DNA of 64,000 nt, taken from the IMG/VR virus record IMGVR_UViG_3300045988_166055, positions 79,505 through 143,504 of that record; one strand, 5' to 3'. Below the pieces are notes generated by a model. That model searched no databases, was not told the DNA's origin, and saw only the letters and a program-made list of their open reading frames with translations. This DNA is from a virus. The translations under genes and the position numbers were made by a program. This document shows positions 8,774 through 48,726 of the stretch, piece by piece. Positions within the stretch are counted from its first letter, which is position 1. Each line of letters opens with the position of its first letter.

Positions 8774-10588
8774 ATGGGTGGACACATAAAGGTGCCGGAT
8801 AATGTGTTTAGAAAATGCGAAATTTGCGGAGATACATTTCATCCTAATACATATAGACAAAGAACATGTGGAAAGCCAAAGACAAAAACTTGTCCCGTTT
8901 GCGGAAAACAATTTGAATATTCATGCAAACCCGATTATATTAAAACCACTTGTTCAAGGAAATGCGCGGATATACTTGCTAAGAAAGTTAGAAACGACAA
9001 TTCGGAAAAGCTAACTAGAAAATGTGCATATTGTGGAAAAGAATTTACGCCTAAGACAAAAAAAGATATTTATTGTAGTGGCCCACACTACAAGAATTGT
9101 GAAGTATGCGGAAAAGAATTCGAGTTTGATGTAAGAGGATATTCTAACATAAAGACTTGTTCTAAAGAATGTAGATATAAATTATCATCTAGAAACAAAG
9201 ACATTGAATCTATGATTCGGAATCATAAGAAAACAATGACTGAAAAGTACGGTGTTGATCAACCTATGCACATTCCTGGAGTAATAGAAAAGATCAAGGA
9301 AACAAATCGAGAAAGGTACGGATCAGATTGGTATACGCAAACTTCGGAATACAAGAAATCAGTTGAAGAAACTTCATTATCCAGATATGGAGTAAAACAT
9401 TTTCTTTCAAGCGAAGATGTTAAGAATAAAAGAAGAGATACATGTAAAGAAAAATATGGATTCAGCAACTATGCTTTTCTTATGGTTGATCACCCTGAAA
9501 AACTTGAAAAATGGATTGAATTCAGAAAAGACGGAAAGAAGTACATATCAGAGAACTATTCAGAAAAGCCTACTAGAAATCAGCTATCAGAAGATTTAGG
9601 AGTATCATATTCTACTATTTCTCAAGAAATACGACTGAAGGGCTTAGATGATTATGTAATGTGTAATGTATCTTACATGGAAGACGAAATAGTAGACGAG
9701 CTGAGGAAACTGATTCCTGATGTTCAAATCATTCGAAGATGTAAGAATTTAATAACACCGTATGAATTAGATATTTATCTACCTGAATATGAAGTTGCAA
9801 TAGAATGCAATCCAACTTATACGCATAATTCGTCTACAAGTAGTTTCACAAATAAACCAAAGCCTATTAGATACCATCAAATGAAAACAGAAATGTGCGA
9901 AAGAAAAGGTGTATTTCTTTTTCATGTATTTGGTTATGAATGGTACAGCAGAAAAGAAATCCTACTTAGTATGATAGGTAATCTTTTAAGATGTAATAGA
10001 AATAGGGTATATGCTCGAAAATGCAAACTAATTGATGTTTCGTCTAATGAATCTAGATCATTCCTAGAATGTAATCATAGACAAGGAGAAGCGTCAGCAT
10101 CAATTAAGCTAGGACTAACTTACAATGACGAGTTAGTTAGTTTGATGACATTTGGAAAGCTAAGAGGAACAATTGGCACAGATAAATCGGATACATCTAA
10201 TTGCTGGGAATTAGTACGGTTTTGTTCTAAGTTAGGCACAAATGTTGTTGGTGGCGCAAGCAAGCTATTCAAATACTTTGTTGATAATTACAATCCAGAA
10301 GAAATAAGATCATTTTCAGATAGGGCTCATACAAAGGGAAATTTGTACTATAAATTAGGATTCCATGAATTGCGAAGATCTGACCCCGGGTATGTTTGGG
10401 TTGAACTTGCTACAGATAATCCTGTTAATAGAGTAACTGTACAGAAATCAAATATAAAATCCTTTCTTCATGATGATTCAATTGACCTTTCTCTTAGTGA
10501 ATCGGAAATAATGATTCAACACGGTTTCGTAAAGGTATTTGATTCAGGCACAATAACATGGCAGTTGAATAAACAAAAATCGTTATAA
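8774..10588 (+). CDS. free-standing homing-endonuclease-like protein (zinc-ribbon repeats plus nuclease-like C-terminal half)
   Basis: There are four CxxC...C..C zinc-ribbon units at the N-terminus and repeated (E/K)(R/K)YG modules. These are followed by ELDIYLPEYEVAIECNPTYTHNS (PD-(D/E)XK-like) and YARKCKLIDVS...NHRQG...VVGGASKLFKYF, which resembles phage Hef/Seg-type homing endonuclease relatives. The gene has its own promoter box and a much lower GC than the capsid gene it follows. Confidence 0.45.
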   Translation: MGGHIKVPDNVFRKCEICGDTFHPNTYRQRTCGKPKTKTCPVCGKQFEYSCKPDYIKTTCSRKCADILAKKVRNDNSEKLTRKCAYCGKEFTPKTKKDIYCSGPHYKNCEVCGKEFEFDVRGYSNIKTCSKECRYKLSSRNKDIESMIRNHKKTMTEKYGVDQPMHIPGVIEKIKETNRERYGSDWYTQTSEYKKSVEETSLSRYGVKHFLSSEDVKNKRRDTCKEKYGFSNYAFLMVDHPEKLEKWIEFRKDGKKYISENYSEKPTRNQLSEDLGVSYSTISQEIRLKGLDDYVMCNVSYMEDEIVDELRKLIPDVQIIRRCKNLITPYELDIYLPEYEVAIECNPTYTHNSSTSSFTNKPKPIRYHQMKTEMCERKGVFLFHVFGYEWYSRKEILLSMIGNLLRCNRNRVYARKCKLIDVSSNESRSFLECNHRQGEASASIKLGLTYNDELVSLMTFGKLRGTIGTDKSDTSNCWELVRFCSKLGTNVVGGASKLFKYFVDNYNPEEIRSFSDRAHTKGNLYYKLGFHELRRSDPGYVWVELATDNPVNRVTVQKSNIKSFLHDDSIDLSLSESEIMIQHGFVKVFDSGTITWQLNKQKSL

Positions 10589-28751: not shown

Positions 28752-28769
28752 TAACCTTATATCTTATTG
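28752..28769 (+). promoter_or_regulatory. class-2 promoter-like box
   Basis: TAACCTTATATCTTATTG. Confidence 0.45.
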
Positions 28770-28787
28770 GTTAAGGGGGAGATAATA

Positions 28788-29789
28788 TTGGTAGGTATAT
28801 ATAAAATACAAAACAAAATCAACGGAAAAATTTATATAGGACAATCGGTAGATATAAATAGTAGATTGCAGGATCATAGAAAAAACAGCAGTAATACATA
28901 TTTAAGAAATTCAATTAAAAAATATGGATTATCAAATTTTTCATTTGAAGTAGAAGAAATCTGTGATGAATCAGAATTAGATGAAAGAGAAAAATTCTAT
29001 ATAGAATATTATGATGCTACAAATCCTGACAAAGGTTATAATGTACAGCTAGGTGGAAAGATATCGGAAGCTGCTAGCGGAGAACATTATAGAAACTGGT
29101 TAAGTCAATTAGCTAAGAATAGAGCTTCATCGCCAGATTATAAGAATCCTGCAGAAGGTACAACTCTAATAAGTAAAGGCGACATTACTTCTAGATGTAA
29201 AGTATGCGATTTAGATAAATATCTATCAGAAGGTTGGATCATTGGACCTTCAAACATATGGAGGGAATCGCACAGACATTCGTCTAACATAGAATATTTT
29301 TCAAATCATAAATTTGTAGGGCCTAAAAACGGATTCTACGGTAAACACCATACAGAAGCTACAAAAGAAAAGATACGTAGAAATATGCCAGATACTGGTA
29401 AAGCTAACAGAGGAAAAAAATTATCTGAGGAGCAGAAGGCTAAGCTTAGAGGACCCAGACCTTCTATATCAGGAGACAAGAATCCTAACTATGGTAAGCG
29501 AGGAGAAAATTCTATAATGCATGGTCGAAGAGTAATAAACAACGGAGTATCTGAAAAACGAATAAATTCAAATGAATTAGATAAATACTTATCTAAAGGA
29601 TGGAGTTTAGGCCGTAAACCTTCTGTAAAAGATAACTTAAAACAAGTTGCTTCGAAGGCTAGTAACAATAAGAAGCTACTAAATAATGGGAAAATATGCA
29701 AATACTTCTATACCGATGAGGTAGAAAATAAAATTAAAGACGGTTGGAAAGTAGGTAGGTTAAATGAAAATATTGAAAATAACTGCTAG
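28788..29789 (+). mobile_element. GIY-YIG homing endonuclease (I-TevI-like, with NUMOD3-type repeats)
   Basis: VGIYKIQNKINGKIYIGQS...R...H, then KYG..NF, then repeated H.E..K.K(I/L) and NPNYGK modules. TTG 28788 lies 7 nt after AAGGGGGA. Confidence 0.8.
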
Positions 29790-35837: not shown

Positions 35838-36024
35838 GACCATATTTCTTCCTGACGGAAGCATAAGGTATACAAATAGCTGTTCAAATAAATTGTACAC
35901 AAGTTATGCTGATGCTAAAGTAAATGAGGAAGAAATGAAGCAAATAGATAATAGGCTGAGGAGAAAATCCTCAGCCAATATCTATATAAATAAAACGTTT
36001 GTAAAGAAAACAAGAGGTGTATGA
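35830..36024 (+). CDS. hypothetical small protein
   Basis: 64-aa ORF that overlaps both neighbours. Confidence 0.4.
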   Translation: MIETIFLPDGSIRYTNSCSNKLYTSYADAKVNEEEMKQIDNRLRRKSSANIYINKTFVKKTRGV

Positions 36025-37268
36025 TGTTTAATAAGTATCCTGAATTACGAATTGCATATGAAAAAGAATGCAGACGACAGGAACAAAACATAGAGTTCAT
36101 TGCTTCAGAAAATTTTGTAAGTATTGATATATTATCAGCCCTAGGAAGTGTATTTACAAACAAATATAGCGAAGGGTATCCAAAGTACAGAACTGAAGAT
36201 AAGGGAAACAAAGGAAGATACTACGGAGGGTGTCAATACATTGACGAAGTAGAAGATTTCTGTATTGAGCAATGGAAGAAAGTATTTCATTTAGATCATA
36301 AGATATCTGGATTGAATAAAACAAGTTATCATGTCAATGTTCAGCCTCATTCTGGTTCGCAAGCTAATATGGCTTCGTACATGAGTGTACTTAATCCTGG
36401 TGACACTATTCTGTCAATGAACCTAAACAACGGAGGGCATCTTACACACGGATCCTCTGTTAATTTCTCTGGAAAACTTTATAATGTTGTTTTCTATGAT
36501 GTAGATGAAAGAGGATACATTGATTATCTTGACATTGAAAAGAAGATAAAAGAGTTCAAACCTAAACTTGTTTTAGCAGGAGCAAGTGCCTATTCTAGAA
36601 CAATTGATTTTGAAAGGATATATAACATAATAAATATATGTTCGACTCATGATTACAGGCCGTATTTCATGGTAGATATGAGTCATATAGCAGGATTAGT
36701 TGCTACAGGTAACCATCCTTCTCCCTTTGGTTATGCAGATATTATAACTACCACAACACACAAGACATTAAGAGGGCCTAGAGGTGGTATAATATTTTGT
36801 GTAAATGACCTTGCAAAGAAAGTAGATAGTTCAGTATTTCCTGGTTGTCAAGGTGGTCCACTTCAGAATGTAATTCTTGCAAAGGCAGTATGCGCTTGTG
36901 AAGATTGCCAACCGGAATATTACAAATACATTGATAAAGTTGTTAGGAACGCAAATGCAATGGCCACCAGGTTCAAACAGCTTGGTTACGAAATAGTAAC
37001 AGGTGGAACCGATAATCACATGTTCTTGATTGACTTGTCTAAAACTCATCCTAATTTATCCGGTAGAAATGTTCAGGAATATTTAGACAAATTTAATATA
37101 ACCGTTAATAAGAATTGTGTACCAAATGAAAAACGAGGTCCTCAGCAAGCTTCAGGAATACGGATTGGTACACCTGCAATGACAACTAAGGGCTGGTCAG
37201 AAACGGATTTCATAATTTGCGCTGAGAAGATTGACGAGCTAATTAAACAGCTAAATAAGAATCGTTAA
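36021..37268 (+). CDS. glyA: serine hydroxymethyltransferase
   Basis: IASENFVS...TNKYSEGYP..RYYGGC.YIDEVE, and the PLP-lysine motif TTTTHKTLRGPRGG. Confidence 0.9.
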   Translation: MMFNKYPELRIAYEKECRRQEQNIEFIASENFVSIDILSALGSVFTNKYSEGYPKYRTEDKGNKGRYYGGCQYIDEVEDFCIEQWKKVFHLDHKISGLNKTSYHVNVQPHSGSQANMASYMSVLNPGDTILSMNLNNGGHLTHGSSVNFSGKLYNVVFYDVDERGYIDYLDIEKKIKEFKPKLVLAGASAYSRTIDFERIYNIINICSTHDYRPYFMVDMSHIAGLVATGNHPSPFGYADIITTTTHKTLRGPRGGIIFCVNDLAKKVDSSVFPGCQGGPLQNVILAKAVCACEDCQPEYYKYIDKVVRNANAMATRFKQLGYEIVTGGTDNHMFLIDLSKTHPNLSGRNVQEYLDKFNITVNKNCVPNEKRGPQQASGIRIGTPAMTTKGWSETDFIICAEKIDELIKQLNKNR

Positions 37269-37689: not shown

Positions 37690-37764
37690 TGGGGCGTAGC
37701 CAAGCGGAAAGGCAGTAGACTTTGACTCTATTATTCGCTGGTTCGAATCCAGCCGTCCCAGCCA
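37690..37764 (+). tRNA. tRNA-Gln (anticodon UUG)
   Basis: Hand-folded cloverleaf. Acceptor TGGGGCG/CGTCCCA, anticodon loop CTTTGAC, T-arm GCTGG-TTCGAAT-CCAGC, encoded CCA. Confidence 0.9.
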
Positions 37765-37965
37765 GTGGTCAATTAGCTATTGACTGATGTCAGAGTAATC
37801 AGCTAACCTGACAAAGAATGAAAATGATCGCTGAAAACTGCTACTAAAGGATTCGTCCTCATTATTCACCTTAAGATAGTGGCTAGTTATTTGTGGATTA
37901 CTAGTTGATGATGATTAGCGTGACAATCTAAGCGGTAAGCTGATGAATAGTTAGGAGGAACATAA

Positions 37966-38349
37966 ATGAAAATTCTTCGTCATCAAAACATAGAAGGAAT
38001 GGCGAGAGTTGGATTTACTTCAGATAGCTACGAAGTATACGTCAATACAGACGATGGTGGAAAAATTCCTCACTTTCATTACAGACTGAAAAATGATTGG
38101 AATAAGTTTCACACATGTATAAAAATTGAAAGTCCTGAATATTTTCATCATACAGGTAAAGAAAGCGTGTTGAATTCTAAACAAATTAGATCGCTCATTC
38201 GATTTCTTAAGTCATCTGTATCTCTATCACAATATAGTGAAAAATTTTCTAACAACTTTGAATTGATTATTTTTCTATGGAACATAAACAATTCGGATGT
38301 TATAGTTGATCCTGAAACAAAAATTCCTGATTACTATCAACTAAATTAA
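37966..38349 (+). CDS. hypothetical protein (DUF4160-like IPHFH motif)
   Basis: 127 aa with an AGGAGG RBS. Confidence 0.5.
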   Translation: MKILRHQNIEGMARVGFTSDSYEVYVNTDDGGKIPHFHYRLKNDWNKFHTCIKIESPEYFHHTGKESVLNSKQIRSLIRFLKSSVSLSQYSEKFSNNFELIIFLWNINNSDVIVDPETKIPDYYQLN

Positions 38350-38352
38350 ATC

Positions 38353-38373
38353 CAATCGTTATTAAGTATGTAG
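38353..38373 (+). promoter_or_regulatory. class-1 promoter-like box (long form)
   Basis: CAATCGTTATTAAGTATGTAG. Confidence 0.5.
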
Positions 38374-38536
38374 CAGCTAGTAAGCTGTAACATAAGGAGC
38401 TCACAATCCTGCCGAAATATCTTCTAGAATATTTCCGCACAATATAGAAAAGAGTGGGTGGCAAGGAATATGCCAGGAATGATTCTAAGCTTGACATGCA
38501 AGTACAACCGGGTGAGAAACTAGTCCCGGTAAATAT

Positions 38537-38611
38537 TGTCAATTAGTTTATGAGGTAAAACATTGTAGCTTAAGATACAATAAGTTGGTTCAATTCCAAC
38601 ATTGACAGCCA
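38537..38611 (+). tRNA. non-canonical tRNA-like gene with an 8-nt anticodon loop GCTTAAGA and a 3-nt variable loop
   Basis: Acceptor TGTCAAT/ATTGACA, D-arm GTTT/AAAC, T-arm GTTGG-TTCAATT-CCAAC, G73 and encoded CCA. The anticodon stem TTGTA/TACAA leaves 8 loop nucleotides. The most canonical reading is anticodon UAA on a short-variable-arm body. Confidence 0.5.
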
Positions 38612-38730
38612 TCGGTCATTGTTGACTGACGCCCACCGAATCTGCTATCTTAGATCATCAGTAGCAGATGCAGTTTTCTAGTTCTCTTTTCTGTTCATCG
38701 AACGTGTTGAAAATAAAGAGAATAATATAT

Positions 38731-38822
38731 GGCGCGATACCGAAGTGGTCATAACGGAGCGGTCTTGAAAACCGTAGGCGGTGATGAGCCGTCCGTGGGT
38801 TCGAATCCCACTCGCGCCGCCA
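38731..38822 (+). tRNA. tRNA-Ser (anticodon UGA)
   Basis: Acceptor GGCGCGA/TCGCGCC, loop CTTGAAA, long variable arm, G73, CCA. Confidence 0.9.
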
Positions 38823-39045
38823 TGCCTTTTCATTCAGCTGACATTAGATTGTCAAATTGATGAAAGTGAAACCAACTATGCTGGCAGGTTGTCGACGGGT
38901 TGAAGAGCCGTAGAGTCTAAACTATTCTCCTCTATTCTAGAAAGAGTCGGAAAGCTAGGCCCCGTAGTAGCAGCCGAAAAGTATCCTAAAACGATAGGCG
39001 TTAAAAAATGTTTTATAGGTGACAGCCCGGAAAGACGGGCATTCT

Positions 39046-39141
39046 CATCTGCTAGAACAATGGTAGTTCAGATAAGTTTATGCTTATTCCGTGTCTGTTG
39101 GTCAATCAGACATTATCTCGGTTCGAATCCGAGGCAGGTGA
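39046..39141 (+). tRNA. aberrant 96-nt tRNA-like gene A (giant extra arm; loop contains TAT; no encoded CCA)
   Basis: Acceptor CATCTGC/GCAGGTG, D-arm GAAC-AATGGTA-GTTC, T-arm CTCGG-TTCGAAT-CCGAG, A73. The anticodon arm is GATAAG-TTTATG-CTTATT (6 bp stem, 6 nt loop). The 28-nt variable region carries a GTCTG/CAGAC hairpin. Confidence 0.45.
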
Positions 39142-39473
39142 CAAATGTCTACTGGTCACCATCTACATACGACAATCAAAACTGCATAGGAGATGGAATT
39201 GGCAACGGCAGCCATGATAAGTGAAGCGATGTTCGAGTCATCAACCTGATCCTGTTCGACTCAGGCAGGGCATGGTGCAAAACTTATCAAGAGGAACTAA
39301 GTACCTGCCTCGCTTCGGATAGCAAAGAAGGCGTTAGTAGTAATCGAAAAACTACTCGCGGTTACAGGGAGGGAGCGGCGTTATAGGTAAACCTCCTGGG
39401 TGTTCTGCTATCGTGCACCTTAGAAAGGCGAAGCTTTTCAGTTAGGACTAATCCGGCCAGATAGCAAAAATAT
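39142..39473 (+). ncRNA. ORF-free structured spacer (candidate ncRNA)
   Basis: No ORF of 60 aa or more. Two T-arm-like hairpins are present (GATG-TTCGAGT-CATC 39228-42 and CCTG-TTCGACT-CAGG 39251-65), along with further GC-rich hairpins. Confidence 0.3.
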
Positions 39474-39547
39474 GCGGATATAGTGTAACGGTAACATGCG
39501 ACTCTTCCAAAGTCGTGTTGCGGGTTCGAGTCCCGTTATCCGCTCCA
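39474..39547 (+). tRNA. tRNA-Gly (anticodon UCC)
   Basis: Acceptor GCGGATA/TATCCGC, loop CTTCCAA, CCA encoded. Confidence 0.9.
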
Positions 39548-39565
39548 TAGAAGGAGGTGACAAAT

Positions 39566-39901
39566 ATGTCTGTTTATAAATGCCCAGTTTGCGGAGGAAG
39601 AGGATTTGTTACTTGCGGATTCTATTCAAGTCAAACATACGATGGAAGCTCGGTAACTAATTACAATTCAACTGAAGTTTGTAGAAGCTGTAATGGTAGA
39701 GGAATTATATTTGATGAATTCTTAGGATCAACTTCAAATAGTATTCATAGATATTGCAGTAATTGTGAAATGAACGATGGTATGGTGTATCCATCGTATC
39801 CTCCTAAATACAGATGTACTTTATCAGGTAATTTCAATGAAGGAACGCATACATGTAATCTAGATGATATTTTGTCAAAGGAAAATAACCAATCTGAATA
39901 A
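39566..39901 (+). CDS. DnaJ-type zinc-finger (CxxCxGxG x2) small protein
   Basis: CPVCGGRGFV ... CRSCNGRGII. ATG lies 9 nt after AGGAGG. Confidence 0.55.
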   Translation: MSVYKCPVCGGRGFVTCGFYSSQTYDGSSVTNYNSTEVCRSCNGRGIIFDEFLGSTSNSIHRYCSNCEMNDGMVYPSYPPKYRCTLSGNFNEGTHTCNLDDILSKENNQSE

Positions 39902-39945
39902 GTTGATAATCGGTAGGGCGCTGCGGTGTGCTTGACCGTGTTCTC

Positions 39946-39980
39946 CCGTCCGGGTGTTGGCGCATCCGGACGGCTTTTTC
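39946..39980 (+). terminator. rho-independent terminator
   Basis: CCGTCCGG 39946-53 pairs with CCGGACGG 39966-73 and is followed by CTTTTTC. Confidence 0.7.
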
Positions 39981-40028
39981 TATCTAGTAAATTATTAACG
40001 AATGATTAAGACTATTGACTTTTCATAA

Positions 40029-40049
40029 GAATCGTTATATAATATGTAC
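40029..40049 (+). promoter_or_regulatory. class-1 promoter-like box with an upstream TTGACT -35-like hexamer
   Basis: TTGACT-N17-TATATAAT geometry. The box is GAATCGTTATATAATATGTAC. Confidence 0.55.
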
Positions 40050-40096
40050 ATAAGTCAGCCAACACATCAAAAAGCTTCAAAGCTAAGGAGGAAAAA

Positions 40097-40411
40097 ATGA
40101 ACGGATACATTATCAAAGCTACATACCTCACAGGTCCGCATAAAGGAGCATCTTATTTCCTTCAAAAAGGCGGATATGTAACATCCGATCCCGATGACCA
40201 GTGGTCAGATAACTGCTACAAGACAGAAAACATCTGCAAGTCAATTTGCATGAAGCTTGAAAGAAGCAACATGGCTGAAAACGTAGTAGAGAAAAGAACA
40301 AGAGAGTATAGATCTCAAAAAGGGTACAATGTATCCGATTTCATGATCTACGAATTGATGAAATATGAACCGTATTTTGTCAAAACTGTTCACAATTCGG
40401 ATGTTTTCTAA
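40097..40411 (+). CDS. hypothetical protein
   Basis: 104 aa with an AAGGAGG RBS. Confidence 0.55.
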   Translation: MNGYIIKATYLTGPHKGASYFLQKGGYVTSDPDDQWSDNCYKTENICKSICMKLERSNMAENVVEKRTREYRSQKGYNVSDFMIYELMKYEPYFVKTVHNSDVF

Positions 40412-40424
40412 GGAGGTATTCACA

Positions 40425-40697
40425 ATGATCATCAATTCTCGTTTAGAAGCAAGGAAGTCTGTTAAGGATAACTTCGAGCTCGCTTGTAAATTTCAAATGA
40501 CAGTCATCAATGTCTTTCATAAGGACTTGATTACAGGTGAAATTGTTCTCACTGATATGTTCAGCCACGATAGTATTCAAGCCGTTACATGGAGAGACGA
40601 TTACCTTGAATCGTTAAAGAAGCTAGAGGTACCTTACATTTGCTATGTGGGAGATCATTTCACAGAATCATCTGGCTACTTAGACTTTGAGGAGTGA
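40425..40697 (+). CDS. hypothetical protein
   Basis: ATG 40425 follows AAGGAGG. The ORF-track start at 40365 is unlikely. Confidence 0.5.
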   Translation: MIINSRLEARKSVKDNFELACKFQMTVINVFHKDLITGEIVLTDMFSHDSIQAVTWRDDYLESLKKLEVPYICYVGDHFTESSGYLDFEE

Positions 40698-40702
40698 CAA
40701 TC

Positions 40703-40987
40703 ATGGATAGAAAAGTTTTTGAAGCTTTATCTTCTGCAAATAAATTGATCAACCATCAACTTGATTGTCAAAAGGCCGCTATTCCTGATATACAAAAAGC
40801 TATTGAAGAAACAGCGAAAGCTTTCAATATCACTTACAAACAAGGCCGCAGTGAAGGATTTGAATCCGAAACTATTGATGATATAGCAGAAATTTACGGA
40901 TATCTAATCGGAGCTAAAGGTGCAATTGAAGCGGTCATATCTAAGTTAGAAGGAGCAAAGAATATGATGTCTAATTTTGATAAATGA
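40703..40987 (+). CDS. hypothetical protein
   Basis: ATG 40703 follows GAGGAG. Confidence 0.5.
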   Translation: MDRKVFEALSSANKLINHQLDCQKAAIPDIQKAIEETAKAFNITYKQGRSEGFESETIDDIAEIYGYLIGAKGAIEAVISKLEGAKNMMSNFDK

Positions 40988-41135
40988 ATGAATACATGAA
41001 ACGAATAATCAAGAAATCGGCTGTAATCGGGATGGCTAAAGAACCGTCAAGAGGTGTTTTTAGATCGTTGATGGAGAAGTCCTGTCATTTCCTTTTTACA
41101 ATGACATAACTTCTCCCGGCGTTGCTAAATCCGGA

Positions 41136-41390
41136 TTGACTTACAACCACAAAAATTTGTGGCCTGATGTTAAACCTAAAGGATGCAATAAACCGTATAA
41201 TTACTACCCTCGTGGACGAGTAGAGCTAGGAAAGAAAAATTCTATCATATATGTAAATCCTAACTTCGATAAATATGATTTAGCAGAAGTTAGAAAGGAT
41301 TTTGGACTTATCAATGAGCCTAAAGTAGTATTTGATAATTCAGATCATTACAAATGTTATCTAGATGACGGATGGAAGCCAGATAAATAA
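41136..41390 (+). CDS. hypothetical protein (TTG start, weak)
   Basis: 84-aa ORF. A 41-aa ORF (40984-41109) precedes it, so this may be a disrupted gene. Confidence 0.3.
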   Translation: MTYNHKNLWPDVKPKGCNKPYNYYPRGRVELGKKNSIIYVNPNFDKYDLAEVRKDFGLINEPKVVFDNSDHYKCYLDDGWKPDK

Positions 41391-41411
41391 CAATCGTTAT
41401 ATAAAATGTAG
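41391..41411 (+). promoter_or_regulatory. class-1 promoter-like box (long form)
   Basis: CAATCGTTATATAAAATGTAG, 12 nt upstream of tRNA-Leu. Confidence 0.55.
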
Positions 41412-41422
41412 TAATCAAATTT

Positions 41423-41510
41423 GCTGGTGTGGTGGAACTGGTAAGACACTTTAGACTTAAAATCTAACGCATTAAGTTGTGTACGGGTTCGAATCCCGTC
41501 ACCAGCACCA
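41423..41510 (+). tRNA. tRNA-Leu (anticodon UAA)
   Basis: Acceptor GCTGGTG/CACCAGC, loop CTTAAAA, long variable arm, A73, CCA. Confidence 0.9.
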
Positions 41511-41543
41511 TTGTCACAGTCATCTTGATTGTGTGGATTGAAA
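41511..41543 (+). repeat. post-tRNA box, copy 1 (hairpin plus GATTGTGTGGATTGAAA)
   Basis: TTGTCACAGTCATCTTGATTGTGTGGATTGAAA. The 17-mer at 41527-43 is identical to 43048-64. Confidence 0.6.
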
Positions 41544-42539
41544 TAAGGGCATACGGAGAAAGTGGTCGTATAAACGTTGTGGTGATCAAGCAATGCCTGA
41601 AGTATCAACGTGACAGATCGGAGAGACGATCAAAAGCGAGGTTCGATTCAGGAAGGTTACAAAATGTATTCCATTTAGAACCGGGTTACGCTGTCTAAGT
41701 GGTTGCCCCTGATGGTCCGGTACGATTCCGGAGGGAATGATTGCTAGAATCATTCCTAACGCTTAGACCTATCTTTTCTATATAGCTGGCCACTATTCTG
41801 CCAATCGACGGATTGGATGAGGTTTCGACCATCAGATAAACGGCTGAAAATGTATAGGCGTTTACTGCTTAACGAAATGAAGCGGGCTGTTGTTCATCTC
41901 AGGATAAAAAGATGGCGTGCCAGCCGACATTGTTAGCCTATTTCGGTAGGTATTCGGTTAGAATAAGGAATGCTACTTATTCGGGAGCTAAATTGAATGT
42001 GCATCCTTCTGAAGTTGGAGTCTCGAAGATAACGGTTCTGAGAGATAGATGTTAAGTTAGTACTTAGCATTGAGGTTAAACTTGTCAGCTCCTAAAAGTT
42101 AATATCGAGCAAACTCACCATAAAGTGTTCTAGCTGCTAATCTAAAAGAGAATGAGATGATTAGAAGGATTGAGCGAATCTAGATGCTCGTTATTATATT
42201 TGCCATCTGCTGGTCCTACACAGCAGTGAGGATGGTAGGACATCCAATAACCAAGCAATCGGTGGAGATAGCGCCGGACACCTCGCCTGTTGAGGAGGGA
42301 ATTTGAACAAAAAGGTAAGATATGTTCACACCAGAACATAAGGGCATATGGAATGGTGAAAATACTTACTAAACCAATCTGCTAGGTTATCTGAGAGAAT
42401 GTCAGGATTTGAGGCAGATAAGTGATAGAATGCAGTACTCTCATTTGACTTTGAGAAGAACCTTTCATATTATCACTTAATGAGTTCTATGCGTTGCAAA
42501 CACTTCTCTCATTCGGGATAGAAAAGAAGGGTTAGACAT
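41511..42539 (+). ncRNA. candidate large structured ncRNA (about 1.03 kb) between tRNA-Leu and tRNA-Glu
   Basis: No RBS-preceded ORF. Exact long-range helices pair 41709-17 with 41827-35 and 42419-27 with 42471-79. A pseudoknot-type complementarity pairs 42213-19 with 42235-41. There are many local hairpins. Confidence 0.45.
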
Positions 42540-42614
42540 GGCGCCTTGGTCAAGTGGTTAAGACACGGCCCTTTCACGGCTGTAACATGGGTTCGAGTCC
42601 CGTAGGCGTCACCA
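42540..42614 (+). tRNA. tRNA-Glu (anticodon UUC)
   Basis: Acceptor GGCGCCT/AGGCGTC, loop CTTTCAC, CCA. Confidence 0.9.
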
Positions 42615-42705
42615 TCACATCCTATAGGATGTGTTAAGTGTGATATATGGTAACAGATTCCGACCTAAGCGCACGGGTCTTCTAGAGGCCTTCGGAATCG
42701 AATAT

Positions 42706-42781
42706 CCGGGTGTAGCTCAGATGGTAGAGCGCGTGGTTTGGGACCACGATGCCGCTGGTTCGAATCCAGTCACTCGGACCA
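42706..42781 (+). tRNA. tRNA-Pro (anticodon UGG)
   Basis: Acceptor CCGGGTG/CACTCGG, loop TTTGGGA, CCA. Confidence 0.9.
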
Positions 42782-42801
42782 TTTTTTCATTCAATTTTTA
42801 T

Positions 42802-42822
42802 TCATCGTTATATAACATGTAG
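42802..42822 (+). promoter_or_regulatory. class-1 promoter-like box (long form)
   Basis: TCATCGTTATATAACATGTAG. Confidence 0.5.
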
Positions 42823-42924
42823 GAGGCATCCATCTCGGATACAATACTACAACGTAGATAGAGAAAACATTTTCTCTGTAATGAGAGGTAAGATACTCTT
42901 GAAGTCGCCTAAAAAAATAAATTA
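42823..42924 (+). ncRNA. candidate small RNA (about 100 nt) between two class-1 boxes
   Basis: No start codon. It contains the hairpin AGAGAAAA-CA-TTTTCTCT and ends in an A-run. The next class-1 box begins at 42925. Confidence 0.3.
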
Positions 42925-42945
42925 GCATCGTTATATATCATGTAG
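42925..42945 (+). promoter_or_regulatory. class-1 promoter-like box (long form)
   Basis: GCATCGTTATATATCATGTAG, 11 nt upstream of tRNA-Thr. Confidence 0.55.
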
Positions 42946-42955
42946 CATAAAATAT

Positions 42956-43031
42956 GCTGGATTAGCTCAGTTGGCAGAGCGCGTGATTTGTAATCTCGAG
43001 GTCAAGGGTTCGAGTCCCTTATCCAGCTCCA
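42956..43031 (+). tRNA. tRNA-Thr (anticodon UGU)
   Basis: Acceptor GCTGGAT/ATCCAGC, loop TTTGTAA (one U-U mismatch in the stem), CCA. Confidence 0.85.
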
Positions 43032-43064
43032 TTGCCACAATTTATTAGATTGTGTGGATTGAAA
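43032..43064 (+). repeat. post-tRNA box, copy 2
   Basis: TTGCCACAATTTATTAGATTGTGTGGATTGAAA. Confidence 0.6.
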
Positions 43065-43123
43065 CCATCTCATCTCCTTCCTGATCCAGTTTCTGGTCTG
43101 GATAAACAAAACCGGGTAAATAT

Positions 43124-43219
43124 CCTGCCTTAGCATAACGGTAGTGCAACCGGCCTATACCCGGCATAAGGCTCTAGATTGGGGCAAGATCTCGGTTCGA
43201 ATCCGAGGGGCAGGACCAT
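43124..43219 (+). tRNA. aberrant 96-nt tRNA-like gene B (giant extra arm; loop CCTATAC; CCA encoded)
   Basis: Acceptor CCTGCCT/GGGCAGG, D-arm GCAT-AACGGTA-GTGC, and a T-arm CTCGG-TTCGAAT-CCGAG identical to gene A, with A73. The anticodon stem CCGG/CCGG carries loop CCTATAC. The variable region is 25 nt. Confidence 0.45.
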
Positions 43220-43412
43220 TAGCGCCCATACAAGCTTAAAAGTATGGTGAGGAATCAAGTTACTCAAGTTAGGTCAGCTTGACATCCAACAGTAAGGACC
43301 TACGACAGGTGAGAATGACGGATTAGTCCTTTCTTGAATAAACAGAACCTGACCCATTGGCGCCGAGGGTGAACGCTGCTTGAAGGTAAAGAAAGGCAAT
43401 AAAACTTTACAT

Positions 43413-43489
43413 GGGAGCATAGCTCAGTTGGTTAGAGCGCATGACTGTTAATCATGATGTCGAAGGTTCAAGTCCTTCTGTTCCCGCCA
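43413..43489 (+). tRNA. tRNA-Asn (anticodon GUU)
   Basis: Acceptor GGGAGCA/TGTTCCC, loop CTGTTAA, CCA. Confidence 0.9.
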
Positions 43490-44036
43490 GCGCCTATATC
43501 AGTCTAGGTCTTGAAAGGATATAGAGACCAATGAATTATCTTTTTAGAAAGGTGATTTATCTGATGAAAAGAGATCATCAACTCTCGGCGAATTAGAACT
43601 TGACGAATTTGTCTTTTGACAAAAAGAAGCAGCAGGTTCGTCTCTGCGCTTAATCTACTGAACTGCAATGTTGATGTAAGCGGTAATTAGGTTCCCAAAC
43701 CAATTCAGGGAGATTAAGAAAAAGTTTGCTTATTTAGTAGAAAGAGGGTTGGAGGGGCACAGCAAGTAGAATAAAAGGACCTATCCAGAATGCCAGGATT
43801 GACACCATAAAATGCTGTCAATGAGAGCATCAGTATTAGACCACGGTGAAGCGATGTGATGATGATAGGAATTGGGACTATCTAATCTCATCTAATGCCG
43901 ATATACATCTGGTTGTGTAGGTAGGCAACAAATTTGAAAGCTATAACAGGATGTGCTAAGGAGTAGAAGTAATAACCTCTGTCTACTGTGTATTTCTGCT
44001 AAATAAGTTCAACTTTTTTATTAAGGGGTTTGAAAA
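43490..44036 (+). ncRNA. ORF-free structured spacer (about 550 nt), second candidate large ncRNA
   Basis: No ORF of 60 aa or more on either strand in the track. Interleaved helices 43494-500/43518-24 and 43507-11/43525-29 give pseudoknot topology. Hairpins lie at 43608-13/43618-23 and 43798-804/43816-22. Confidence 0.35.
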
Positions 44037-44252
44037 ATGAAAACAATCACTTTTATCTGTTATGATAAATATCCAAAAACAACAAAAAGGTCTCACATTT
44101 TTAAGAAGCGTTTTTCTTCGTTAGCAGATGTTGCTAAATTCTTGAAAGTTTCAAATAAAATCTATTTGCAAAATCCGATGAACGAATTTTCAAAAGACGA
44201 ACTAAGAATTCTTTCAATGAAAGTTCGATCGTTAAATAAAATGAAGGTGTAG
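44037..44252 (+). CDS. hypothetical small basic protein
   Basis: 71 aa with a GGGG RBS-like stretch upstream. Its 3' end overlaps tRNA-Lys by 10 nt. Confidence 0.35.
   Translation: MKTITFICYDKYPKTTKRSHIFKKRFSSLADVAKFLKVSNKIYLQNPMNEFSKDELRILSMKVRSLNKMKV
44226..44246 (+). promoter_or_regulatory. degenerate class-1-like box
   Basis: CGATCGTTAAATAAAATGAAG matches the 41391 box at 17 of 21 positions. It runs into tRNA-Lys, so function is doubtful. Confidence 0.25.
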
Positions 44253-44318
44253 CTCAGTCGGTAGAGCACCTGCCTTTTAAGCAGGGTGTCGGGAGTTCGA
44301 ATCTCCTCACCTTCACCA
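44243..44318 (+). tRNA. tRNA-Lys (anticodon UUU)
   Basis: Acceptor GAAGGTG/CACCTTC, loop CTTTTAA, CCA. Confidence 0.9.
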
Positions 44319-44324
44319 AAATAT

Positions 44325-44409
44325 GCACCTGTGGTGGAACTGGCAGACACGCTTGACTTAGGATCAAGTGCCTTCAGGTTTAAGGGTTCGAGTCCCTTCA
44401 GGTGCACCA
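44325..44409 (+). tRNA. tRNA-Leu (anticodon UAG)
   Basis: Acceptor GCACCTG/CAGGTGC, loop CTTAGGA, long variable arm, A73, CCA. Confidence 0.9.
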
Positions 44410-44414
44410 TATAT

Positions 44415-44491
44415 GGAGGATTAGCTCAGCTGGTTAGAGCGCTTGCTTTACACGCAAGAAGTCGCAAGTTCGAATCTTGCATTCTCCACCA
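44415..44491 (+). tRNA. tRNA-Val (anticodon UAC)
   Basis: Acceptor GGAGGAT/ATTCTCC, loop TTTACAC, CCA. Confidence 0.9.
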
Positions 44492-44497
44492 TTATTT

Positions 44498-44574
44498 GGC
44501 CAAGTAGTTCAGTTGGTTAGAACGCCAGCCTGTCACGCTGGAGGTCACGGGTTCGAACCCCGTCTTGGTCGCCA
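44498..44574 (+). tRNA. tRNA-Asp (anticodon GUC)
   Basis: Acceptor GGCCAAG/CTTGGTC, loop CTGTCAC, CCA. Confidence 0.9.
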
Positions 44575-44740
44575 TTGTTGGTTTTACTATTTTATCAATG
44601 TCAGAACGGGGCGAGTCCGTTCAAGTCGCTCAAATCGGGTTGGCCACCAGGAGAGTCAGATTAAAATGGGTTGAGGCGGAGAGTTGGAAAGCCTAGTAGC
44701 TACATTAGGCATGCATAGTGTAGCTACCTCAAAAAAATAA

Positions 44741-44815
44741 GGGTCCGTATTTCAATGGGAGAAAGCTTCCTTTGCACGGAAGAAGTTGCGTGTTCGAGTC
44801 ACGTCGGATCCACCA
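44741..44815 (+). tRNA. tRNA-Ala (anticodon UGC)
   Basis: Acceptor GGGTCCG/CGGATCC with the G3:U70 identity pair, loop TTTGCAC, CCA. Confidence 0.9.
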
Positions 44816-44936
44816 TTTGAGACTTCAGACAAGTTGGTTAGAATGTCTGATTAAACGACATACAATGAGACGATACCAAGACTTTAGTTCGTTACAGAGC
44901 GGTGACTGAATGTCAAATCCCTTATGTCATTTATCT

Positions 44937-45013
44937 GGGCCTTTAGCTCAGTTGGTTAGAGCATCCGGCTCATAACCGGATCGTCCCGGGTTCGAATCCC
45001 CGAAGGCCCACCA
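44937..45013 (+). tRNA. tRNA with anticodon CAU (elongator Met or lysidine-Ile2)
   Basis: Acceptor GGGCCTT/AAGGCCC has 1:72 paired, so it is not an initiator. Loop CTCATAA, CCA. Confidence 0.85.
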
Positions 45014-45168
45014 TAATTGGTACAACACGACTGTAACGGCTCCCGCGGTTTAGAGTTGTATCCCGTTTCTTAGTTGAAGCGTGTAGTGTCAAGAGAGCCT
45101 ACCAGACGAGCCATATGGGCACCACCTAGCGGTGAAAAGATATGTGGGACGATCGTCAATTATTATAT

Positions 45169-45245
45169 GCCTCAGTAGCTCAGTTGGATAGAGCAACTTC
45201 CTTCTAAGCAGTAGGCCACAGGTTCAAGTCCTGTTTGAGGTGCCA
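45169..45245 (+). tRNA. tRNA-Arg (anticodon UCU)
   Basis: Acceptor GCCTCAG/TTGAGGT (two G-U pairs), loop CTTCTAA, CCA. Confidence 0.8.
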
Positions 45246-45319
45246 GAAAGCACATTAAATAACGTGGAATAAAACTGGAGGTTGTGATGGGACGTTGAGC
45301 CTCCTTTACAAAACAATAA

Positions 45320-45388
45320 GATGCTTTACGCCAGTTGGTAGACGACTCTTGTACAGAGAAGACGCTGGTTCGAATACAGCAAGCATCA
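45320..45388 (+). pseudogene. degenerate tRNA-like element (shortened anticodon arm; no CCA)
   Basis: Acceptor GATGCTT/AAGCATC, D-loop AGTTGGTA, T-loop TTCGAAT. Only 19 nt lie between the D and T arms (CTCT-TGTAC-AGAG). Confidence 0.35.
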
Positions 45389-45594
45389 AAAGCTGCTCTG
45401 ATTGGGTCCGTGCTTGATACTAAGTTGCAGGAACATAAAGGCCTGCACGCTAATCTTCATCACCCAAAGAAGAAAAAGGACAGCAGTAAAAAATCTGTCA
45501 AAGATCAGATAAGACAGAAACTGCATCGAGCAAGTAGAGATAGCGCTGTCTTGAAAGCTCAAAAATATCCTATCTGCAGTAGGATATTAAATCT

Positions 45595-47784: not shown

Positions 47785-48726
47785 ATGGAACTTATTGAGC
47801 CTAATGTAGAAATGATTACGGAAAGAGATATCTACAAACGAATTGAACTTGCGGGGAGAACCTGCTATAAGTCAGAAGACAAAATTAAAGAAGACTCAGC
47901 AAAAAAGTTTGTTAAAGCTATGATTAAGAGTAATCATACTGCTATGCTGGAGCATGCGTCACTGGTATTTCAAGTAGATTCATATTTTGTTTGGGAAAAA
48001 ATTAAGAGATGTAATAGAAGATATCTGAATCTAACTGAATGCTACGTTCCTACAGGATACAACAACCAAGAAAGACGGCTTCTTGTTTCAGGTAACATTC
48101 GAGCTATCAACGAATCCGAAAATCCTTTTCTGCTTAAAGCTATGGTAAATGCAGGATACGGTGACGCAGTATATGGTGACCCTACAGTAGAAAAGGATAG
48201 GGAATACGATGTAGATGCTAGAGTTGTCAATCTCATTGATCTTGAAAATATTCAGAGAGAAGAGATCTTGAATCACTACTATCCTTCTTTCAGATTAATT
48301 ACAGATAGGGCAGTAACTCATGAGATGGTTCGTCATCGTCCCGCAAGTTTTGCTCAAGAATCTCAGAGATATGTAAACTATGAAAAGAAAGGTGGAGTTC
48401 AGTTCATTAAACCTTATTGGTTTGATTCAGCATCTGCTACTGAAAAGATTTCGTTCAAATTTTCTTTGCAGAATTCTGAAGGAATTTACAAGGAGCTAGT
48501 TGAATCCGGTCTGAAGCCGCAGGAAGCAAGAGGAGTTCTTCCTAATGCTACAAAGACAGAAATTGTTATGACAGCTCCCATGTATGAGTGGCAGCATTTT
48601 CTTAATCTTAGATTTTTTGGAACAACTGGAACACCTCATCCTGATATGAAGAACATTGCAAGATACATCTATAACTATCTGAAAGATGATGAACTTGTAA
48701 ATAAATATGGAACAATTGTCCTATAA
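47785..48726 (+). CDS. thyX: flavin-dependent thymidylate synthase
   Basis: ThyX signature HEMVRHRPASFAQESQRYV (RHR..S....S.RY). Confidence 0.85.
   Translation: MELIEPNVEMITERDIYKRIELAGRTCYKSEDKIKEDSAKKFVKAMIKSNHTAMLEHASLVFQVDSYFVWEKIKRCNRRYLNLTECYVPTGYNNQERRLLVSGNIRAINESENPFLLKAMVNAGYGDAVYGDPTVEKDREYDVDARVVNLIDLENIQREEILNHYYPSFRLITDRAVTHEMVRHRPASFAQESQRYVNYEKKGGVQFIKPYWFDSASATEKISFKFSLQNSEGIYKELVESGLKPQEARGVLPNATKTEIVMTAPMYEWQHFLNLRFFGTTGTPHPDMKNIARYIYNYLKDDELVNKYGTIVL

Follow-up and report, generated by a model that had tools for sequence, protein, structure and literature searches.

The anticodon of a tRNA normally serves two readers, the synthetase and the ribosome, and it is because these two readings are coupled that most bacteria require lysidine for AUA decoding. 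The tRNA sets of phages such as T4 supply decoders for A-ending codons, among them an AUA decoder in the form of the TilS-dependent tRNA-Ile(CAU). With the isoleucyl-tRNA synthetase (IleRS) of Escherichia coli, charging of a UAU tRNA is about 360-fold poorer than that of its lysidine counterpart (PMC3575796), and G34, A35 and U36 are read by dedicated IleRS residues (bioRxiv 10.64898/2026.02.03.703510). Here we consider a stretch of 64,000 nucleotides (nt) from an uncultured tailed phage (IMG/VR record IMGVR_UViG_3300045988_166055, positions 79,505 to 143,504; hereafter the window), in which an earlier sequence-only reading had picked out two tRNA-like genes with long extra arms, here called A and B. 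Both lie on the plus strand where that reading placed them, with the arms it described. We find that B carries two isoleucine anticodon arms in tandem, a UAU arm followed by a GAU arm. Two-armed phage tRNA-Ile genes of this kind are widespread, and a literature search brought up no account of a natural tRNA with two anticodon arms.

B is a real tRNA, since both ARAGORN and Rfam call it. It scores 44.7 bits on the Rfam tRNA model (RF00005), above the gathering score of 29, and 117.8 bits on R1, the covariance model of its own family. The gene and its central parts are:

43124-43218, plus strand: B, a tRNA-Ile-type gene of 95 nt with two tandem anticodon-type arms, A73 and an encoded CCA (ARAGORN Ile(tat); Rfam tRNA; family covariance model; covariation)
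43150-43164, plus strand: hairpin 1 of B, CCGG/CCUAUAC/CCGG, with the anticodon UAU at 43156-43158 (TAT invariant; compensatory change)
43171-43185, plus strand: hairpin 2 of B, the "extra arm", GCUC/UAGAUUG/GGGC, with GAU at 43177-43179 (GAU conservation; stem covariation)
43186-43190, plus strand: linker of B, AAGAU, 5 nt, last base U48 (equivalent of the class-I variable loop)

The acceptor stem of B is formed by 43124-30 and 43208-14, the D arm by 43133-47 and the T arm by 43191-207, with A73 at 43215 and CCA at 43216-18. Hairpin 1 follows the D stem by one nucleotide plus an A.C mismatch and, as in a tRNA-Ile(UAU), presents UAU in a 7-nt loop at the normal position, with a pyrimidine at 32, U33 or C33, a purine at 37 and C38. 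The suggestion that B is an unusual tRNA with a UAU anticodon is supported, that anticodon being invariant in the family, and the remark was right that no standard class accommodates a type-I D arm together with a long extra arm. The C33 that had been singled out in hairpin 1 is present in the window copy, but only 5 of 21 distinct variants have it, against U33 in the rest. The variable regions, said to span 25-28 nt and to contain a hairpin, do so: they measure 25 nt in B and 28 nt in A.

The extra arm of B is something other than the variable arm of a class-II tRNA. Because its loop presents GAU and is followed by the equivalent of a 5-nt variable loop, the architecture is that of two tandem isoleucine anticodon arms, and the order throughout the family is D arm, one nucleotide, UAU arm, a linker of 3-9 nt (usually 4-6), GAU arm, 5-nt variable loop and T arm. 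Among the matches listed, which are also the scope of the locus and loop counts given below, 52 distinct tRNA-context sequences with the B anticodon arm have 23-29 nt before the T arm, and about four have a normal 5-nt loop there. Hairpin 2 reads as 4 base pairs (bp) with a 7-nt loop in 56 of 58 distinct long variants; this parse was selected for four pairs, and only covariation is counted as evidence for the stem. The stems comprise 21 different sequences, in which all four pairs are changed on both sides. In the family at large hairpin 2 ranges from 4 to about 8 bp, the latter in L313 and L314 (L numbers are our handles for loci). The centre of the loop is GAU in 53 of the 56 variants, GAC in two and GAA in one, with position 32 always a pyrimidine and position 38 always a purine. 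The loop CAGAUUA is found in 33 variants; UAGAUGG, UAGAUUG (the window type), UAGAUAA, CUGAUUA, UUGAUAA and CUGAUAA also occur, the last of these, in L233, L241 and L258, being the exact anticodon loop of bacterial tRNA-Ile(GAU). GAU, here at the equivalents of positions 34-36, is the anticodon found in the major tRNA-Ile and the chief identity element for IleRS. Hairpin 2, in the place of the 5-nt variable loop of a class-I tRNA, mimics the anticodon arm of tRNA-Ile(GAU).

The linker on the 3′ side of hairpin 2 is 5 nt long in nearly all members and, in our own reading of the alignments, its last base (48) covaries with D-loop position 15 as A15-U48 or G15-C48, in the manner of base 48 of ordinary tRNAs. 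The body is that of a bacterial-type tRNA-Ile in L233 and L241, and when hairpin 1 is deleted in silico from L241, the best E. coli matches are annotated as tRNA-Ile. Two further ideas were discarded: second anticodons are not a general rule, as other extra-armed class-I tRNAs of phages (Pro, Glu, Gly, Asn, Cys, Lys, Thr) have short loops, and pairing of an AUA in the first linker with the UAU loop is ruled out, since that linker is not conserved.

B is well conserved and is not a decaying pseudo-tRNA, the alternative that a comparison with homologues was meant to settle. In alignments of 16 and then 21 distinct variants, 96% of the cells are paired, and the base pairs changed on both sides number 9 of 25 with 16 variants and 17 of 25 with 21. 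None of 500 shuffles matched the observed pairing, and no slid register came close. RNAalifold independently predicted the same five helices, all of which are supported by covariation. TAT, A73 and C38 are invariant among the 21 variants, and TAT is also kept in every other parsed sequence of the family. One variant has a compensatory change in hairpin 1, from C28-G42 to A-U; the 5-bp T stem covaries, with pair 49-65 seen as C-G, G-C and A-U; and pair 13-22 is kept in 18 of the 21. With respect to the IleRS identity elements known from E. coli (PMC9976931), from which those of the host enzyme may differ, A73 is kept throughout and C29-G41 in 20 of 21 variants, but there is no conservation of C4-G69 or U12-A23.

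In relatives fetched by way of the adjacent SHMT gene, B occupies the same slot, and pattern scans of DNA showed it in numerous IMG/VR contigs that come from different samples. The anticodon-arm motif CCGGYTTATACCCGG gave at least 120 viral loci. A tRNA(UAU) of at least 88 nt is present in 83 fetched loci, 16 of which also carry a separate tRNA-Ile(GAU), and in 12 fetched loci the B-type tRNA is the sole tRNA. BLAST extended the family to cultured phages of Lactobacillaceae. Existing annotation overlooks or mislabels the gene: it is unannotated in the GenBank records of LpeD and Lpa804, although in ENFP1 and 3-521 it is annotated as a 91-nt tRNA-Ile. B-type genes also occur in Semele, Bacchae, Bromius, Iacchus and Dionysus, and in the temperate Latilactobacillus sakei prophage TMW 1.1393 P1. 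In the latter (L167 1415-1659), three adjacent unannotated tRNA-like genes, an 8-nt-loop tRNA, a two-armed tRNA(UAU) and a 68-nt tRNA-Ile(GAU), are partly overlapped by a coding sequence labelled "hypothetical protein". As regards a cellular origin of B, a degenerate extra-arm motif gave 116 matches in genome contigs; none of those inspected lay in a tRNA context, and the matches are taken as chance.

An aberrant form of the gene is found in Harbinvirus phages (Semele L166 1501-1589; L170, L171 and L172 at about 601-690; Semele, Bromius, Bacchae and Iacchus), in which the first loop has only 5 nt, AAUAC, AAUAU or UAUAC, and GAU is lost. These copies bear marks of decay, namely the loss of G18 in Bromius and mismatches in the T stem and extra arm in Bacchae, and an intact tRNA-Ile(UAU) adjoins them. 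GenBank lists the aberrant copy as tRNA-Tyr in Semele and leaves it unannotated elsewhere. In Bromius, a duplicated 3′ half also lies about 190 nt downstream.

What does AUA mean to this phage? ATA makes up 319 of 14,799 codons (2.2%) and 30% of the isoleucine codons. When the window proteins were aligned to those of relatives and the codons compared, ATA sites had changed to ATT or ATC 52 times, to Val codons 18 times, to Leu codons 14 times and to Ser codons once. ATT and ATC show the same substitution spectrum, whereas CTA, TTA and CTT change mainly to other Leu codons. ATA codons therefore evolve as isoleucine codons, not as Leu or Ser codons, as would be expected of the codons read by a tRNA-Ile(UAU), and the recoding or mis-charging that the sequence-only reading had entertained is not supported by the phage genes; recoding of AUA to Leu or Ser is rejected on this test. 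Nor is an AUA decoder missing from the remaining tRNAs, as had been thought, because a gene of the tRNA-Ile2 type is present:

44937-45013, plus strand: tRNA(CAU) of the tRNA-Ile2 type, the conventional TilS-dependent AUA decoder (C4-G69, C5-G68; E. coli matches)

In E. coli it is matched best, over the full length and at about 78% identity, by genes annotated as tRNA-Ile. Besides the CAU anticodon and an ileX-type similarity, it has C4-G69 and C5-G68, the determinants for TilS.

As judged from the sequences, hairpin 1 would be the likelier decoder of the two arms in B. It has U33 in most variants, a pyrimidine at 32, a purine at 37, a fixed canonical size and, as is canonical, a single nucleotide between it and the D stem; normal-length relatives of the tRNA(UAU) type have it as their only anticodon arm. 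Hairpin 2 has A33 in 48 of the 56 variants and U37 in 41, yet G34, A35 and U36 are kept; because of this combination, and of its variable stem size, it would suit recognition rather than decoding. Since IleRS reads G34, A35 and U36 and the E. coli enzyme disfavours UAU, it is tempting to propose a division of labour, which we infer from the sequences, with the UAU arm as the decoder and the GAU arm as the handle for IleRS. The UAU arm would read the phage's abundant AUA codons without a need for TilS, and the GAU arm would supply the synthetase recognition that bacterial IleRS withholds from U34 tRNAs, whereby B would be charged with isoleucine. The model requires that the three-way junction let either hairpin stack under the D stem. 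To the reading as a whole, in which B is a functional phage tRNA on a tRNA-Ile body with a decoding UAU arm and a GAU arm for IleRS, and A is a non-decoding or decaying sibling, we give about an even chance of being right. A bolder form of it, which we regard as possible but doubtful, is a two-headed tRNA in which either hairpin stacks under the D stem, IleRS charging through the GAU head and the ribosome reading AUA through the UAU head; the GAU head might then also read AUU and AUC in those members where both loops are canonical.

Several points weigh against the proposed division of labour. Reading of the GAU loop in the normal pocket of IleRS would need hairpin 2 to occupy the canonical anticodon-arm position during charging, and such a swap is hypothetical. 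Three family members have lost GAU, having GAC or GAA, with the UAU arm kept; the same arm is found in tRNA(UAU) genes of normal length that have no handle; and the window's own B has C33 in hairpin 1. The stems of A are intact and only 2 of its 96 columns vary among relatives, so that decay of A is not demonstrated. The tRNA-Ile(UAU) of Lactobacillus plantarum is said to have been reported by Tomikawa et al. in 2018 as not charged with isoleucine. On the enzyme side, t6A37 is a strong determinant for bacterial IleRS (PMC9976931), and this modification is impossible in most GAU loops, as they have U37. Finally, Bacillus subtilis tolerates a G34U suppressor of tRNA-Ile1 (PMC13602947).

The second element is less easily placed:

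39046-39141, plus strand: A, a tRNA-like gene of 96 nt without an encoded CCA (fold z = -4.15; no ARAGORN or Rfam call)

The fold of A is a clean cloverleaf with an extra hairpin, and thus has the two-hairpin topology of B, with neither loop canonical (minimum free energy -32 kcal/mol, z = -4.15, with none of 200 shuffles as stable). The acceptor stem spans 39046-52/39134-40, the D arm 39055-69 and the T arm 39117-33, with A73 at 39141. Hairpin 1, GATAAG/TTTATG/CTTATT, lies at 39071-88, and hairpin 2, at 39091-39113, has 7 bp and a 9-nt loop, UUGGUCAAU (39098-39106), centred on GUC. The 6-bp stem with a 6-nt loop that had been assigned to hairpin 1 can be seen, but it is equally readable as a 5-bp stem with an 8-nt loop, G+UUUAUGC, and the loop can also close to 4 nt. 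Likewise, A73 in both genes holds for the window, but in A it is peculiar to the window, all six relatives having G73. ARAGORN does not call A, and Rfam gives no match at E≤1 in a 9-kb search or E≤10 in a 131-nt search, the RF00005 threshold not being reached; on the B-family model R1, A scores 51.5 bits, barely above generic tRNAs (up to 49 bits).

A and B can hardly be called twins, as only the T-arm block and the D-loop type are common to them. The 17-nt T arm CTCGGTTCGAATCCGAG is indeed identical in the two, the identical block actually extending to 20 nt, and only A and B carry copies of it in the window, even when 2 mismatches are allowed (0 expected by chance). A itself was found only in four IMG/VR and two ENA contigs of the same phage species, with about 95% nucleotide identity to the window, and in L004, L005 and L027 a 77-nt CAU tRNA takes exactly this slot instead, between conserved flanks. 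Relatives of A with canonical loops did not appear: a pattern of the extra arm and T loop matched the same phage species only, as did a pattern of the D arm and first hairpin in metagenomes; the D-arm pattern alone gave only ordinary tRNA-Asn and tRNA-Ile(GAU) genes, and blastn-short with A found only the T-arm block shared with B. Among copies of A, 2 of 96 columns are variable versus about 4.5-4.8% in the flanks, a difference that is not significant, and the stems show a single substitution, U-A to U-G. Because all copies are nearly identical, a test for decay has no power for A.

Given its range of one species, the non-canonical loops, the lack of a CCA, the variable position 73, the swapped slot and the parallel with the Harbinvirus copies, in which a non-canonical first loop and marks of decay go with an intact tRNA-Ile(UAU) alongside, we regard A as most likely an atypical sibling of B or a relic that does not decode, in a tRNA slot open to swaps, although it may have a special function. 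The GUC at the centre of its second loop is the Asp anticodon, and G73 (in 6 of 7 copies) and G10, which A also has, are Asp identity elements; this resemblance may be coincidence. Five nucleotides upstream of A, at 39025-39040 on the plus strand, lies a hairpin, GCCCG-GAAAGA-CGGGC, with compensatory GCTCG/CGAGC and GCCTG/CAGGC in relatives, and the spacers on either side of A are unusually conserved, with about 4.5-4.8% variable columns versus 14.6% for all spacers.

Other explanations of the two arms of B have to be weighed. The roles could be reversed, with the GAU hairpin as the working anticodon arm of an ordinary AUU/AUC-reading tRNA-Ile and the UAU hairpin as an accessory insertion at 26/27 that is protective, regulatory or protein-binding. 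L233 and L241 do resemble a bacterial-type tRNA-Ile(GAU), with its exact CUGAUAA loop, into which a hairpin has been inserted; the 5 nt that follow hairpin 2 amount to a normal variable loop and show the R15-Y48 covariation; B minus about 20 nt has the length of a normal tRNA; and A too has a TAT-centred first hairpin, on a different body. We nevertheless consider this reversal unlikely, as the A33 (48 of 56) and U37 (41 of 56) of the GAU loops are non-canonical for decoding and the length of hairpin 2 is not fixed, whereas the loop and 5′ junction of hairpin 1 are canonical and this hairpin is the sole anticodon arm of the normal-length relatives. Both arms might instead decode, either hairpin stacking under the D stem, so that one tRNA would read all three isoleucine codons. 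Each of the two 7-nt loops has a pyrimidine at 32 and a purine at 38; in some members both loops, YUUAUAC and CUGAUAA, are canonical throughout, and 12 fetched loci have this tRNA and no other. This we judge very unlikely, however, given that most GAU loops are without U33 and purine 37, that 16 of the 83 loci have a separate tRNA-Ile(GAU), and that a structural precedent is lacking.

The union of a long extra arm, A73 and a UAU anticodon in B also recalls the nematode nev-tRNA-Ile(UAU) (PMC3333845) and the bacterial allo-tRNA(UAU) (PMC5389517), which are precedents for mis-charging, here with Leu (through A73 and the long arm) or Ser, and hence for recoding of AUA. Such a role is extremely unlikely for B, as ATA, at 2.2% of codons, exchanges with ATT and ATC as isoleucine codons do, the D arm is of the class-I type, the acceptor/T configuration is 7/5 with covariation in the T stem, and the extra arm bears an isoleucine anticodon rather than being a Leu- or Ser-type arm. 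One or both genes could act outside translation, as decoys or baits for host tRNA-targeting nucleases or for tRNA-binding regulators that recognise isoleucine anticodon loops. B displays two such loops on one RNA, A has non-decoding loops on an intact body, and most allo-tRNA(UAU) species have been suggested to be unused for translation (PMC5389517). The reportedly uncharged state of the L. plantarum tRNA-Ile(UAU) would also agree with a role of this kind. The encoded CCA, invariant A73 and canonical acceptor stem and T arm of B, and its frequent place beside other decoders in arrays that match the A-ending codon bias of the phage, make a decoy quite unlikely. We also know of no nuclease specific for tRNA-Ile. 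As for A, there is a slim chance that it is a special decoder, its 8-nt first loop (G+UUUAUGC) reading a quadruplet or shifting the frame and its second hairpin giving an Asp-like identity (central GUC, with G73 and G10 in relatives). In support of this, a conserved tRNA at 38537-38611 has the same design of an extra 5′ G plus a canonical 7-nt loop on a covarying stem, the second loop has GUC at its centre, G73 is found in 6 of 7 copies, and only 2 of 96 columns vary. Against it, A belongs to a single species and thus offers no covariation, its CCA is not encoded and position 73 varies, sister phages hold a different tRNA in the slot, and the analogous Harbinvirus copies are decayed.

The conserved tRNA at 38537-38611 (plus strand), reported by ARAGORN as "???(ta)", has G73 and an encoded CCA. 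Its anticodon loop has 8 nt (G+CUUAAGA), or 6 nt if a G.A pair closes it, and so shares with A the loop design with an extra 5′ G; the loop is invariant in relatives, and the stem is doubly compensated, from UUGUA/UACAA to UCAUA/UAUGA. It belongs, with A and B, to the following array:

37690-45391, plus strand: phage tRNA array, with 17 ARAGORN genes, plus A, plus one further tRNA-like gene

The codons read by the 17 ARAGORN tRNAs are nearly all A-ending. The further tRNA-like gene, at 45320-45391 (plus strand), was detected by Rfam only (35 bits) and does not encode CCA; the homologue in L027 is read by ARAGORN as tRNA-Tyr(gta) and that in L004 as tRNA-Cys(gca), which implies that the anticodon was switched on one body. 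Also within the array, the stretch 41713-41886 (plus strand) matches RAGATH-36 of Rfam below threshold (44.7 bits, the gathering score being 70; E = 1.3e-6). In sister phages (L004 17656-17740, L027 3887-3971, L038 304-388), an 85-nt tRNA(UGU) with an enlarged D loop and a 13-nt extra arm replaces the 76-nt tRNA-Thr(UGU) of the window (42956-43031), another cassette swap in the array. More distant relatives and phage LpeD have an amber-suppressor-like tRNA(CUA), and also tRNAs in which ARAGORN reads 4-base anticodons (tttt, tttg, ttgt), meaning 8-nt loops (L007 6725-6801 and 8818-8894; L014/L016 8818-8894; L165 4272-4343; L036 2251-2326).

The array is flanked by a SHMT gene and a NAD-dependent DNA ligase gene. 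The former (36021-37268, plus strand) is labelled "methyltransferase" in PHROGs (phrog_9968), and was for that reason a candidate for a nearby tRNA enzyme; the candidate was rejected, the gene being a serine hydroxymethyltransferase by Pfam (SHMT, 457.6 bits, 3.6e-137). Neither a synthetase nor a tRNA-modifying enzyme was found among the window open reading frames (ORFs) scanned, a few ORFs of at least 150 amino acids having been left out. Besides the ligase, the AT-rich genome encodes in the window a thymidylate synthase (47785-48726), a baseplate wedge protein, a major head protein, an endolysin, helicases, SbcC, RecU and a sigma factor. The major capsid protein reaches only 25-28% identity with its counterparts in Herelleviridae-like phages of Bacillus, Listeria and Streptococcus. 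Homing endonuclease genes of the HNH and GIY-YIG/NUMOD3 types lie at 8774-10588 and 28767-29789 (plus strand), and HNH genes adjoin the B-type tRNA in LpeD, Semele and 3-521. Such genes fit a cassette-like exchange of tRNA arrays.

If the UAU arm of B decodes while its GAU arm secures charging by IleRS, B would be a natural uncoupling of tRNA identity from decoding, and the first natural tRNA with synthetase identity and decoding placed on two separate anticodon arms. This would bear on how the genetic code evolved, on the escape of phages from the codon and tRNA limits of their hosts, and on orthogonal tRNA design. As the gene is present in cultured phages of Lactobacillaceae and in an inducible L. 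sakei prophage, the question can be put to a direct test.

How, then, do these tRNAs compare with known types? Like T4-type sets, the window array has A-ending decoders, including one for AUA; unlike them, it holds both a CAU tRNA and B. Anticodon loops of 8 nt are known in frameshift suppressors and in the yeast mitochondrial tRNA-Thr1. A and the tRNA at 38537-38611 can be drawn with such loops, although that of A, which we know from sequence alone, also closes to 6 or 4 nt. With the class-II tRNAs (Leu, Ser, Tyr), B shares a stem-loop between the anticodon arm and the T arm. Those arms, however, have 3-5-nt loops and short 3′ linkers and go with a 3-bp D stem and an enlarged D loop, whereas in B the loop of the arm is anticodon-like, with 7 nt, and a complete variable loop of 5 nt comes after it; its 4-bp D stem with a 7-nt D loop and its UAU anticodon place B outside this class.

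The nematode nev-tRNA-Ile(UAU) resembles B in its long extra arm and UAU anticodon, but nev-tRNAs are eukaryotic, derived from tRNA-Leu and charged with Leu (PMC3333845). B has a tRNA-Ile-like body, a class-I D arm and GAU in the extra arm, and AUA behaves as an isoleucine codon; the best matches of the body without hairpin 1 being tRNA-Ile genes, B would not belong among the nev-tRNAs. The allo-tRNAs, in which UAU is the predominant anticodon, likewise have a long extra arm and are known from metagenomes, but they have 8/4 or 9/3 acceptor/T branches, a long, Sec-like D stem with a tetraloop, and G73 or U73 (PMC5389517). Because its T stem has 5 bp and covaries, the configuration of B is 7/5, which rules out an allo-tRNA; B also differs from them in its 4-bp D stem with a 7-nt loop and in A73. 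Closest in decoding are the bacterial tRNA-Ile(UAU) species of Mycoplasma mobile and of lactic acid bacteria, which, like B, have an unmodified-type UAU for AUA, A73 and independence from TilS, with a U34 that standard IleRS disfavours (PMC3575796). These appear to be class-I tRNAs of the ordinary kind, with an adaptation on the side of IleRS or of the ribosome, whereas in B a second hairpin, with a GAU loop, is part of the tRNA itself.

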